DNA of 64,000 bases from Promethearchaeota archaeon (GCA_048939625.1 JBHLPH010000006.1:32001-96000); one strand, 5' to 3'. Shown: positions 59,440 through 64,000, numbered from the stretch's first letter. Notes: generated by a model from the sequence alone, not told the origin. Program-made: numbers and translations.

Positions 59440-60792
59440 CTATTTGTATATGCCATATTCCTTGGTGAAGTCTGCCATGGCCTTCAGATTCTCTGGCTTG
59501 ATTTGATCAAAGAAAGCCCCATTGGACATGATATAACCACCGCCTTTACCAGCGGTATCAATGAGTTCTTTTGCACAGTCTTTCACTTGTTGAGGTGTGC
59601 CTACAGCCAACAAATCGGTGGGGATATTACCGCCTATGCAGGCAACGGTACCAATCGTTTTCTTGGCTTTTGTCATGTCAGTCGTGTCGAACACCCATAG
59701 TGTCTTACCTTTAGGTAGGTCTTTGATAACTTCCAGACGGGAAGTAAAGCCCCCTTCAGCCACAGGAAATGGGATGCATCCCTCTTCAATCAAGCCCATC
59801 ATGACTTTTCTAAAGGTAGGCCAGTAGAATTTTTTGAATTGTTCATCGGAGAGGAACCCATCAGCACCTTTGTGGAGGGGCATAAAGACCAATGGCTTTT
59901 GGTTCACCATTGCTGCTCCTACGCCCATTCGAATCATGAGTGGTGTTAGAGTCTCCATGGCTTCAAGTAGCTTCTCCGGTCGACGGTACATGTCCACCAT
60001 TATCCCTTTGGTTCCTCTAAGTGTGTCACCAAGCACATCAAAAGGAGCCTTTGTAAATCCGGCGAGGAGCGGTGGATATCCTAAAGTGGCCATCTCACCG
60101 TCGAACCCTCCTACCATTTCTACCCATTTCAGGGTTTCAGCCCCAGCATCAAAAAGTGCCTTATAAGTTTCTTGGACTGGAGGTAGACCAAACGGTATGA
60201 AGTTAAAAGCAACGCCATACATTTCGAGTATACCAGTCAGAGCGGGGAGCATCTTGAATCCCTCCAGCTTGCCAAATACACGTGGTAAATAGTTATTACT
60301 GAAGAAATTCGACGGGTCCTGAATCAAGTTGTCATACTCTGCGGCTTCCATGTATACTCCTTCGTTAGCTTGGTAGGAATGTTCAGGTGCGACCCCATGT
60401 CCAGGCCAAGAATATAATTGGTAGTCGAGGATTTCGAAGAACTTACCTGGACCGGGTCCAGCACAGCCCATATGGGCATCCGGTTCAAAGTCTAAGACAA
60501 ATTTTTTCCACGCTGCAGCACACTTGTCGTAGTCGTACATTGCATCTTGAGTGGTTATTCCGTAATAAAACGTGGGAAACATGTTGGGCAATATAAGGAG
60601 TGGTACCCTGTCGGGCACTTTCTTCATTTGAATCGCGTCTTTGATTCTTGTAATTCTTTCTTGGTACAACTTCTTGGCTTCTGGACTTTGAAATTTTAGA
60701 TCATTCCCTTCAGGGTCTTTCGGTGAAAGCCACTTTTCAAACAACGCTTCCTGTTTTTCATCCGATGATAAATCTTCCCATTGTTTTTCCAT
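59440..60792 (-). CDS. UroD-fold corrinoid methyltransferase (MtoB-like O-demethylase candidate)
   Basis: PDRVP, APFDVLGDTLRG, DMYRRPEKL, FMPLH, FYWPT, CIGGN, GGGYI; follows the corrinoid protein gene. Confidence 0.8.
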   Translation of the reverse strand: MEKQWEDLSSDEKQEALFEKWLSPKDPEGNDLKFQSPEAKKLYQERITRIKDAIQMKKVPDRVPLLILPNMFPTFYYGITTQDAMYDYDKCAAAWKKFVLDFEPDAHMGCAGPGPGKFFEILDYQLYSWPGHGVAPEHSYQANEGVYMEAAEYDNLIQDPSNFFSNNYLPRVFGKLEGFKMLPALTGILEMYGVAFNFIPFGLPPVQETYKALFDAGAETLKWVEMVGGFDGEMATLGYPPLLAGFTKAPFDVLGDTLRGTKGIMVDMYRRPEKLLEAMETLTPLMIRMGVGAAMVNQKPLVFMPLHKGADGFLSDEQFKKFYWPTFRKVMMGLIEEGCIPFPVAEGGFTSRLEVIKDLPKGKTLWVFDTTDMTKAKKTIGTVACIGGNIPTDLLAVGTPQQVKDCAKELIDTAGKGGGYIMSNGAFFDQIKPENLKAMADFTKEYGIYK

Positions 60793-60820
60793 TTTTATCA
60801 CACTCTTCTTTCTTCTCAGC

Positions 60821-61468
60821 TTAGAGTTCTTTCTTAGCGCCAATCCATTTCTTGGCGAGGGTTACGGCTGCCATGGCATCTTCACCATAGGCGTCAGCCC
60901 CAGTGAACTTCCTGATTTCCTCGGTAATCTGACCACCGCCTATCATGACCTTTACTTTGTCCCTTAGGCCCGCCTGTGAAATAGCTTCTATTGTTTCTTT
61001 CATGGCATCAAACGCAAGAGTTAGAAATCCACTTAAGCCAACAATAGGGGCATCAGTTTCCTTTATCTTGTCGACAAACTTCTGTACTGGAACATCCACA
61101 CCCAAATCGTAGACCTCAAAGCCATTGATGTCGAGCATAAAGACTACGATATCTTTTCCAATATCATGAATATCTCCAGCAACGGTGCCAAATACGATCT
61201 TACCCAAACGTTCAGTTTTTGCTTCCTGGGTTATCTTGGGTTTGACCAGTTCGGTTATTGCTGACAATATCTCCCCGGAATAAATCAGGTCGGAGATGAA
61301 ATATTCCTTATTCGCAAAGCGATGACCCACGATTTCAAGGCCTCGCCGTGCATCTTCTAAGATTTTGAGTGGGTCGTCACCAGCGTTCAACCTATCTTTA
61401 ACAATCTTGAGTGCTTCTTCTTCCTTCAAATCTGCCAAAACACTGACTAACTTCTCGGATTTTCCCAT
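60821..61468 (-). CDS. Corrinoid (B12-binding) protein (MtoC/MtaC-like)
   Basis: Cap domain plus GTVAGDIHDIGK, DLGVDVP, GLSGFL, VMIGGG, GADAY; GAGGT RBS. Confidence 0.93.
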   Translation of the reverse strand: MGKSEKLVSVLADLKEEEALKIVKDRLNAGDDPLKILEDARRGLEIVGHRFANKEYFISDLIYSGEILSAITELVKPKITQEAKTERLGKIVFGTVAGDIHDIGKDIVVFMLDINGFEVYDLGVDVPVQKFVDKIKETDAPIVGLSGFLTLAFDAMKETIEAISQAGLRDKVKVMIGGGQITEEIRKFTGADAYGEDAMAAVTLAKKWIGAKKEL

Positions 61469-61521
61469 GAAATAACCTCACGACTATTTTTTTCCTCACT
61501 CAACCTTCCAAATTTGGTAAC

Positions 61522-61553
61522 AAGCTTTTGATTTCATCTTTGATAAAAAGCTT
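61522..61553. promoter_or_regulatory. Inverted repeat in the divergent corrinoid/activator promoter region
   Basis: AAGCTTTTGAT-N10-ATAAAAAGCTT (10/11 match). Confidence 0.4.
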
Positions 61554-61773
61554 ATGACAGATAATCAATGGAGGAAAATCATTCACCTTAATGGACCTTA
61601 TTGAGCGGCTTCCTGATGTCGCTAAAACATTATTTGTTTGGAGCCAGCAAGATTCACAGAACTTTGTTGAAACTCACGAATTGGCATATTAGTGCTTCAG
61701 TCATTTCATAACGCTCTTTTAGCTTGGTGGACATCTCGTAAAAGTTATTTAATTACTTAGTCAGAGTTCTATC

Positions 61774-63690
61774 ATGCGCCGGATAAAGGAAAGAAATATT
61801 ACGGTCACATTTGAGCCCGAGGGACGAAAAGTAAGAACTGTATTAGGAGCAAGCATATTTGATGCAGCCGGTACTGTGGGTGTGGATATTCGATCTGAGT
61901 GTGGTGGAAAGGGGACTTGTGGAAAATGTAGGATTATCATCCGAGAGAAAAACGCTGTATCCAAGGTCACAAAGACTGAAATGAGCCACTTATCCGCATC
62001 AGAAATCGATGCAGGCTATAGGTTAGCTTGTTGTACTAAGCTGAAACGAGATATCACCATAATGGTTCCCCAAGAAAGCAGAGTTGGCGAACGTAAAATT
62101 CAAGTCACAGGTTTAGAAAGGGCTGTACCGTTAGCACCTTCTGTAACAAAATTTTTCATCACCTTACAGAAACCGTCATTGGGTGATGCCAGACCAGACT
62201 GTGATAGGATCCTTGATTGCTTGAAAAAAGAATACAGTCTCGAAAAAATAGAAATCGGGTCTGAACTTTTGAAGAACTTGCCCAACATCCTACGTCAAGC
62301 AAATTGGGCGATCACCGTCACTTTATGGAATAATCAGAAGATCATAGCGGTTGAAAAGGGTGACACGTCCAATAAGCTCCTGGGATTAGCAATTGACATC
62401 GGTACATCGAAAATTGTCGGTTGCGTCGTGGATTTGGCAAATGGTAGAACCATAGGCGTAGGTTCTGTTGAAAACCCCCAGATGATCCATGGTGAGGACG
62501 TTGTTTCAAGGATCGCCTTTGTGAAGGATAATGAAGAAGGACTAGACACCCTACAAAGATTAGCGTTCGAAGGAATAAATCGGGTGTTGCAGGAAGCGTG
62601 CACCCAAGCTGGTGTTGATTCTCACTATATCTATGAGGTAACAGTCGCAGGCAACACTGCGATGCACCATTTATTCTTAGGCGTTCAACCCAAATTCTTA
62701 GCCCTCTCGCCTTTTATACCGTCCATAAGAAAATCAATAGATCTTACAGCGAGAGAGGTGAAACTCAATATACACCCAGAGGCTAACGTACATGTGTTAC
62801 CGATTATTGCTGGTTTCGTCGGTGCGGACGCTATTGCAAATGTCTTATCAACCGGGATCTACGAATCAAAAGAACGCTCCTTACTTCTGGACATCGGAAC
62901 AAACACAGAGGTTTTTGTTGGCAACTCTGAGGACATCGTTTCATGCTCGTGTGCCTCAGGACCTGCTTTTGAGGGAGTCCATATCAAACACGGAATGAAA
63001 GCCGTCACCGGTGCGATTGAAAGAGTGCATATCAACCCAGATTCAGATTATCACGTTGAGTTTGAAACAATAGGGGATGTAAAACCAAGAGGGTTATGCG
63101 GGTCCGGCATGGTTGATGTCGTAGCTGAAATGGCTAAATGTGGAATTATTGATCAACGAGGACGCTATGACCGGAAGATGAAAACACCTCGATTAAGAAC
63201 CACTGGCAATAGCGTAGAATTTGTACTAGTACGGAAAAATGAAAGCGCAACTGGAAGAGAAATAACAGTTACACAAAAGGACATCACTGAAATTCAACTG
63301 GCAAAGGCTGCAATATACACTGGATGCTGGATTTTAATGAAGGAGACTAACCTGAAGACTGATGATCTCGATCAAGTCCTTCTTGCAGGCGCCTTTGGAA
63401 GTTACATTAATCCTGAAAGCGCGAGATTGATAGGATTAGTACCTGAAGTCTCGACGGAGAAAATCAAGTTTGTAGGCAACACCGCGTTAAGTGGTGCTAA
63501 AATGGCGTTGCTCTCACAAGAGGCAAGAAAAACTGCTGAGAGACTGTCGAGCAAAATCCGCTATCTTGAACTCACACGCACTTCCAACTTTAATTCAGAG
63601 TTTGCCAATGCCATGTTTATCCCGCATAAAGACTTAAACAGATTCCCAGTGGTTAGCAAACAATTCAGGAGATTTGGAAAAGATGTTTAA
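61774..63690 (+). CDS. ATP-dependent reductive activator of corrinoid proteins (RACo/RamA; 2Fe-2S + ASKHA, DUF4445)
   Basis: [10 protein letters not shown]...[61 protein letters not shown]. Confidence 0.93.
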
Positions 63691-64000
63691 ATTTGAACAG
63701 GAACAAAAAGTCTTCGACATCGCTGGAGTGAAAGTAGGGGGCCAACCCGGGGAGTATCCAACTGTCTTGATAGGTAGCATATTCTATGATGGACACAAAA
63801 TCGTCACGGACATAATGAAGGGTGAATTCGACAAATCTCAAGCTGAAACCTTGCTTAAGAAGCAAGAAGAAATGTCAGAAATAACTGGAAACCCAGTGAT
63901 TATAGATGTGGTGGGTCCATCAGCCGAGGCCCTAAAACGATGTGTTGATTTTGTGTCTGAAAAAACTGACGCCCCATTTCTTGTCGATGGTCCATCGGCG
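63683..64000 (+). CDS. mtrH: MtrH-family corrinoid:H4MPT methyltransferase (MtoA/MtgA-like); truncated by the window end
   Basis: Not in the ORF track. Frame from ATG 63683: [41 protein letters not shown]...GEFDK...TGNP..IDVVG...DAPFLVDG. Confidence 0.9.

Follow-up and report, generated by a model that had tools for sequence, protein, structure and literature searches.

Our analysis concerns a corrinoid-dependent methyl-transfer locus at the right-hand end of a 64,000-nucleotide stretch of DNA from a Promethearchaeota archaeon, called here the window (genome G000, contig C61, 32001-96000). The window lies within a 112.6-kb contig of uniform composition, part of a 2.31-Mb metagenome-assembled genome (MAG) of 83 contigs that is 87.6% complete with 6.3% contamination, and the nearest homologues are labelled "Candidatus Thorarchaeota" and "Promethearchaeota". 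An initial annotation of this DNA had named four genes, for a UroD-fold methyltransferase, a corrinoid protein, a RACo activator and an MtrH-like enzyme, and all four are present with strong family matches. Two of them read leftward: MT1, a UroD-fold substrate:corrinoid methyltransferase of 450 residues (59440..60792, minus strand; PF01208 URO-D, E 3.7e-19), and its cognate corrinoid protein of 215 residues (60821..61468, minus strand; B12-binding E 7e-23, B12-binding_2 E 2e-10), whose DxHxxG motif reads DIHDIG in the DNA. Across a divergent intergenic region, which the gene coordinates place at 61469..61773, the other two read rightward: a RACo-type ATP-dependent reductive activase of the corrinoid protein with 638 residues (61774..63690, plus strand; Fer2, RACo_linker, Raco_middle and RACo_C_ter, E down to 8e-98), and an MtrH-family corrinoid:pterin methyltransferase (MT2; PF02007) that begins at 63674 on the plus strand, is cut by the window end at 64000 and reads on in the contig to 64603. 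The 109 MtrH residues inside the window match PF02007 at E 2.9e-43 and the full 309-residue gene (L003:2674-3603) at E 4e-99, or 332 bits; its database entry starts three codons later and gives 306 residues.

For MT1 the true start is the ATG at 60792, which yields 450 residues as in the 450-residue homologues; the 467-residue frame first listed was rejected, as its TTG start falls within the end of the corrinoid gene. An AlphaFold2 model of the protein has a pLDDT of 96.4, with the UroD and MtaA folds as top fold-search matches. Where MtaA-type enzymes carry a zinc motif of the form HxC, the MT1 sequence reads PLHKG. The sole solved relative is the chloromethane enzyme CdmB (9rui; E 4e-35, about 30% identity), with an alignment that is good over the C-terminal half only, and CdmB is absent from the Foldseek matches listed for the model. 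A TIM barrel with extensions, a length in the range of 410-450 residues and a corrinoid partner with the DxHxxG motif place MT1 in the UroD-superfamily group of corrinoid methyltransferases that includes MtvB, OdmB, VdmB, MtoB and CdmB.

Within that group the initial annotation had taken MT1 for an MtoB, the O-demethylase of archaeal MtoABCD systems, and this assignment fails. As anchors we used MtoB-type proteins found by scanning genome contigs for the motif YTRWPG.EL.E, which gave ten loci, nine of them with a full-length open frame bearing the motif; the nine come from Bathyarchaeota, Nezhaarchaeales, Jordarchaeales, Archaeoglobaceae and one genome labelled Bipolaricaulota, and their N-termini match published MtoB1 and MtoB2. 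The six frames taken as anchors, a set that does not include the MtoB of M. shengliensis, are 40-73% identical to one another, while MT1 is 26-31% identical to them over residues 38-449. In a FastTree tree of 118 rows, drawn up without MtvB, OdmB and CdmB, the MtoB-type proteins form a clade with starred support of 100, apart from a 98-row uncharacterised group that holds MT1, and, of the 150 representatives at 50% identity that are nearest to MT1, not one bears the MtoB motifs. Because Y153, R259 and D267 are invariant in 57 aligned sequences, five MtoB-type anchors included, and because the model has the UroD fold, the catalytic scaffold is common to MT1 and the MtoB-type enzymes and the subfamily is not. 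By sequence, then, we assign MT1 to a separate and very large clade, which we call clade X.

The family around MT1 comprises more than 6,000 clusters. The best homologue is 90% identical and carries an Asgard label, and the next relatives, outside the genus, are many sequences at 70-80% identity labelled Anaerolineae, Dehalococcoidia or Spirochaetota. Within the 98-row group MT1 is nested, with starred support, among such bacteria-labelled sequences, and Loki-type Asgard orthologues (59-65% identical) form the sister group to this nest. Another Loki-type Asgard locus (G181:C3, L027:7359-13315) holds four tandem UroD-type MT1 paralogues behind one corrinoid gene, 36-39% identical to the MT1 of the window.

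The partner genes are of mixed affinity. The corrinoid protein scores 162 bits against TIGR02370, under the cut-off, and is 75-83% identical to the corrinoid proteins encoded beside clade-X MT1 genes in metagenome contigs. The RACo protein carries an N-terminal 2Fe-2S domain, scores 551 bits against the AcsV model, again under the cut-off, and is 41-42% identical to the RACo of bacterial clade-X loci. The nearest named relatives of the MtrH protein are from Promethearchaeota (86-87%) and Bathyarchaeia (60-63%); almost all are archaeal, with one labelled Aminicenantes. Since the relatives of MT1 are labelled bacterial and those of MtrH are archaeal, the system is a mosaic, in which a bacterial-type corrinoid/MT1 pair is combined with an archaeal RACo/MtrH pair. 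A search for the tetrahydromethanopterin (H4MPT) pathway, which the initial annotation had called for, found Mch, Ftr, CdhC and a Mer-like gene in the genome, while FTHFS gave no match at the 87.6% completeness of the assembly. Given these genes, the absence of a match to FTHFS and the archaeal relatives of MtrH, methyl transfer to H4MPT is the likely outcome.

The closest described parallel is MtoABCD of Methermicoccus shengliensis and Archaeoglobus fulgidus (PMC8630106, PMC8359953), which has the same four parts in hosts that, like G000, possess an H4MPT-type Wood-Ljungdahl pathway. The four-part layout that the initial annotation had matched to MtoABCD is borne out, as a corrinoid protein, MT1, MtrH-like protein and RACo also occur together in the MtoB-type loci L033, L036 and L037 (in L038, where the locus begins at MT1, only MT1, MtrH and RACo are seen). 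The accessory proteins share 36-52% identity with their counterparts in MtoB-type loci (42-49% for the corrinoid protein, 36-48% for the MtrH-like protein, 43-52% for RACo). There are also differences. MT1 belongs to another clade, the gene order is divergent here and co-linear in MtoABCD, and the neighbours are an ABC importer, AOR, alcohol dehydrogenase and ligase where MtoABCD has MFS transporters. Thus the Mto-like reading stands for the architecture and the H4MPT-pathway genes; membership of MtoB and, as we now argue, a conserved supercluster with ring-reduction genes do not stand.

To the left, MT1 abuts a bzd/beta-oxidation island, and the contiguity that had been reported with AOR1 (57054-58886) and bzdNOPQ (36929-41155) is real in this assembly. 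BzdN, BzdO and BzdQ score above the NCBIfam equivalog cut-offs (517, 617 and 403 bits against 454, 449 and 380), and a second BcrAD-type ATPase is also present, which identifies a Bzd-type class I benzoyl-CoA reductase (BCR). The island consists of two blocks. Block A (32592..47874, plus strand), defined by synteny with congeners, runs through a Had-like dehydrogenase, a hydratase, an HMGL-like protein, DUF2148, bzdNOPQ, a ferredoxin, a BzdV-like protein, an amidohydrolase and IorAB. Block B (47998..59284), defined by DNA and protein synteny, holds hydratases, an F420-type LLM oxidoreductase, thiolases with OB-fold partners, a 3-hydroxyacyl-CoA dehydrogenase, an FAD/NAD oxidoreductase, an Fe-S protein, AOR1 and a small open reading frame. 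The initial annotation had proposed that demethylase and ring-reduction genes form one lignin-monomer supercluster and had named a unique adjacency beforehand as an outcome that would refute it; among the genomes searched, the adjacency is unique to G000.

In five congeners the usual order of the island is B-A, where B corresponds to 48.0-59.3 kb and A to 32.6-47.9 kb of the window, while in G000 it is A-B. In G001 and G007 the B-A order is seen in DNA coordinates, and in G010, G014 and G006 protein synteny places AOR1 and its small upstream open reading frame directly against the Had gene that precedes bzdN. The island of roughly 27 kb (window 32592-59264) is accordingly a circular permutation of the congener order (L039, L042, L045, L046) at another chromosomal site. 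Comparison of the junctions with G007 by blastn shows a 55-bp joint (47869..47923), found in this genome only, between the end of block A at IorB and the start of block B at an enoyl-CoA hydratase, and at the right breakpoint (59265..59439) the end of the relocated block B is joined to the stop codon of MT1, similarity to the congener junction ending at about 59264. In G007, G001 and G010 the island lies between orthologues of two genes that in G000 are found on contig C3, at about 67998 and at 68752. Because the A-B order is a circular permutation at a different site and the usual site is empty, our results suggest that the island moved through a circular or tandem intermediate. No tRNA gene or obvious att-type repeat was seen at the island junctions, and no integrase nearby. 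An empty site was also sought in congeners beside the epimerase gene (31359-32342), where gene neighbourhoods proved not to be conserved.

Could the contact of block B with MT1, or the permuted order itself, be an artefact of assembly or binning? The contamination of the MAG, the A-B arrangement as against that of five congeners and the location of the flanks of the usual site on a different contig would all fit such an origin. However, the breakpoints sit exactly in the short intergenic stretch between B and A, as blastn of the junctions shows; C3 runs unbroken through the empty site, with 754 bp and no island between the two flanking genes; and on C61 the island is flanked left and right by unique sequence, its genes being 82-96% identical to those of congeners. 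We therefore consider an artefact very improbable.

A different question is whether demethylase, AOR, BCR and beta-oxidation genes have been selected together as one locus of about 31 kb through which lignin monomers would yield the ring as well as the methoxy carbon. All these genes adjoin on a single contig whose composition is uniform. Of 14 congeners, 8 have BzdO and 2 have MT1 (G006, and a partial copy in G013), and all three congeners that gave an MT1 match also have BzdO; BzdO is present in 5 of the 16 other Asgard genomes that carry an MT1 orthologue, compared with 57 of 399 in total, although these counts come from related genomes that are not independent. Yet in G006, the one congener whose full methyltransferase cluster can be read on a contig, this cluster lies on a different contig from the island, and there the gene beside MT1 is not AOR1 but the orthologue of a gene at 58.4-59.5 kb of G000 contig C34. 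The genomes G219, G195, G227 and G218 likewise hold the MT1 orthologue and BzdO on different contigs, none of the 400 Asgard genomes other than G000 has MT1 and bzd genes on one contig, and bzdNOPQ lies within 10 kb of MT1 in none of 80 metagenome loci. With AOR1 beside the Had gene in congeners, and with the ring chemistry discussed below, we regard joint selection as unlikely. Since five congeners carry the B-A order at another site and G006 keeps cluster and island apart, the contact between the demethylase-like cluster and the island is a genome-specific result of island relocation.

The gene content for ring metabolism is relevant to the same question. The initial annotation had cautioned that no 4-hydroxybenzoyl-CoA reductase (Hcr) is encoded in the window, and our search extends this caution to the genome at its 87.6% completeness: no gene in it matches the xanthine-dehydrogenase family (PF02738) that Hcr requires, a tblastn search with an Hcr-like trio found nothing, and no ligase of the genome scores above the benzoate-CoA ligase cut-off. 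The missing Hcr-type gene counts against joint use of ring and methyl group, although a class I BCR needs no dehydroxylase to reduce 3-hydroxybenzoyl-CoA, which counts in its favour. What else might feed the BCR? IorAB (window 45356-47874), of the indolepyruvate:ferredoxin oxidoreductase type and just under the NCBIfam cut-off, is a conserved part of the congener bzd block, and AOR1 is flanked by the Fe-S protein and the FAD/NAD oxidoreductase. By analogy with known pathways, this gene content hints at a feed from aromatic amino acid breakdown, which would again speak against a ring supply from lignin monomers. BamB was considered as an identity for AOR1 and for its counterpart to the right of MT1, AOR2, and was rejected, both being ordinary AOR types.

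Unlike the island, the genes to the right of MT1 are found with it elsewhere. Besides the methyl-transfer genes, this module comprises AOR2 (a tungsten-type aldehyde oxidoreductase), an Fe-S protein, a Zn-alcohol dehydrogenase, LivKHMGF, a rhodanese and an acyl-CoA ligase, and extends to about 76.6 kb in window numbering. The congener G006 has the same 13-kb order (LivM, LivH, LivK, alcohol dehydrogenase, Fe-S protein, AOR2, MtrH, RACo, corrinoid protein, MT1), and the MT1-to-LivM cluster is also kept in metagenome contig L047, there lacking the RACo gene. On that contig (L047:3594-5434) MT1 is 87% identical, MtrH directly adjoins the corrinoid gene with no RACo between, and AOR2 matches in two pieces. 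Just past the module ligase, outside the window, lies a gene for a 704-residue molybdopterin oxidoreductase (L003:16264-18378; C61:109264-111378) whose closest match among solved structures is acetylene hydratase (2e7z, 415 bits), adjoined by a small Fe-S gene.

The same set of genes accompanies clade-X MT1 in metagenome contigs of bacterial type. We collected 80 metagenome loci with MT1 at 69-87% identity, 22 of which have at least 8 kb upstream and at least 5 kb downstream. Near MT1 in these 22, AOR is found in 18, LivHMGF in 18-19, an SDR in 18, a pterin-binding MT2 in 16, RACo in 14 and a CoA ligase in 9, and neither bzdNOPQ nor MtrH in any. The bacterial clusters, from sediment metagenomes with Anaerolineae, Dehalococcoidia and Spirochaetota labels, thus match G000 in their LivKHMGF, AOR, dehydrogenase, RACo and ligase content and differ in the MT2, which in them is a pterin-binding, folate-type enzyme (PF00809) and in G000 is of MtrH type. 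They also have a conserved protein of about 229 residues, with no Pfam match, and a C_GCAxxG protein, both absent from G000; the former lies between MT1 and RACo in 42 of the 80 loci (e.g. L064:11404-12093). One bacterial clade-X locus (L050:13448-17166) carries, right after a CoA ligase, a trio with the composition of 4-hydroxybenzoyl-CoA reductase: a 766-residue subunit of the xanthine-dehydrogenase family (Pfam) and genes of 310 and 157 residues, sized like FAD and 2Fe-2S subunits. Loki-type orthologues retain the corrinoid/MT1 pair only, and at L013:7805-9100 and L022:12099-13460 such pairs adjoin CitMHS/ArsB-type anion permeases rather than an ABC importer.

High similarity between the archaeal and bacterial loci is confined to the corrinoid protein and MT1, AOR2 being 39-40% and the Liv genes 22-53% identical. 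The shared gene content was therefore not acquired as one recent block, so that a functional tie among these genes is more likely. The functional unit is the module to the right of MT1, not the bzd island to its left.

On balance, and with moderate confidence, we read the locus as a complete four-component corrinoid methyl-transfer system, with a methoxylated aromatic compound as the favoured donor and a contact with the island that came about by relocation. In this system RACo would spend ATP and a low-potential electron on bringing the corrinoid protein to the Co(I) state, MT1 would move a methyl group from the substrate onto Co(I), and the MtrH-family enzyme would pass it on to H4MPT, from where methyl-H4MPT would enter the archaeal Wood-Ljungdahl pathway. 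Of this scheme the gene set, the protein folds and the presence of the H4MPT pathway are observed, and the acceptor and, above all, the methyl donor are inferred.

Which compound would supply the methyl group? A methoxylated aromatic aldehyde, alcohol or acid seems to us the most likely donor, a reading on which we are about evenly divided. We favour it because the characterised members of MT1's UroD group mostly demethylate methoxy-aromatics (PMC13222342), because the content of the module suggests a route from alcohol or aldehyde through acid to acyl-CoA, and because one bacterial clade-X locus, L050, has the Hcr-like trio. Several points weigh against it. MT1 is remote from the MtoB-type enzymes in both identity and tree position, as described above. 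The module has no aromatic-specific gene, its ligase has its highest scores against fatty-acid CoA ligase models and falls under the benzoate-CoA ligase cut-off, and the nearest solved relatives of the LivK-type protein are binders of Leu, Ile and Val. The rhodanese could point to sulfur chemistry, as could the C_GCAxxG protein of the bacterial clusters, and the gene content shared by archaeal and bacterial modules may be old or convergent. Finally, CdmB, a near neighbour of the O-demethylases and 31% identical to MtoB, acts on halomethanes; the paper describing it states that close relatives differ in substrate and names no substrate-defining residues (PMC13222342). We had also considered the LivK-type protein as a binder of aromatic acids and dropped this candidate, having found no link to solved aromatic-acid binding proteins.

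The donor may instead be non-aromatic: a halomethane, a methylthio compound such as methylmercaptopropionate, or an aliphatic methyl ether. That the one solved relative of MT1 is a halomethane enzyme would be consistent with this, as would the place of MT1 in a radiation without characterised members, where at least 150 clusters formed at 50% identity are closer to MT1 than MtoB is. A rhodanese is encoded in the G000 module as well as in L050 and L051, and the anion permeases beside the Loki-type orthologues point the same way. However, a gaseous halomethane needs no ABC importer, AOR or CoA ligase. Thiol-handling relatives use a zinc site of the HxC type, and MT1 has none. Together with the fit of the module to an acyl-CoA route, these points make a non-aromatic donor possible but in our view doubtful. 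The CdmBCA chloromethane system of Acetobacterium dehalogenans (PMC13222342; PDB 9rui) illustrates the comparison: CdmB and MT1 both lack the zinc motif and both have a TIM barrel with extensions, while CdmA, according to that paper, groups with folate-dependent MT2 enzymes rather than MtrH, and the module around MT1 suggests a non-volatile, imported substrate.

Related gene groups have been reported in other Asgard archaea. Mto homologues were proposed in Lokiarchaeota and Helarchaeota in 2021, and Zhang et al. 2021 (PMC8163825) described in Hermodarchaeota both a Bzd-type BCR cluster with BzdV, ferredoxin, Dch and Had, and mtrH genes beside corrinoid genes; that paper describes no UroD-type MT1/RACo set and no link between the two gene groups. 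Of the 15 papers listed by our literature search on Hermodarchaeota with O-demethylation or lignin, none named Hermodarchaeota. The novelty lies in the clade-X MT1 module and in the change of its MT2 in an archaeon. More boldly, and as a conjecture that we consider rather unlikely, clade-X MT1 with its ABC importer, tungsten AOR, dehydrogenase and CoA ligase might constitute an undescribed anaerobic route for methoxylated aromatic aldehydes, alcohols and acids that is widespread in sediments; Hermodarchaeia-type Asgard archaea would have taken the corrinoid/MT1 pair from bacteria and rewired it to H4MPT through an MtrH-type MT2; a mobile bzd island would then have landed beside it, allowing use of both methyl group and ring in this strain.

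Lignin methoxy groups are a large carbon pool in anoxic sediments, and their use by Asgard archaea is the question behind this locus. Our analysis argues against citing a combined ring-plus-methyl "supercluster" as a conserved unit and shows that "Mto-like" calls made from gene architecture alone can overreach, since the enzyme that sets the substrate belongs here to a different clade. That clade has thousands of members and no characterised example, and the constancy of its AOR, importer and ligase partners makes it a good target for biochemistry. The swap of MT2, for its part, is a clear example of a borrowed pathway fitted to the one-carbon carrier of its host.

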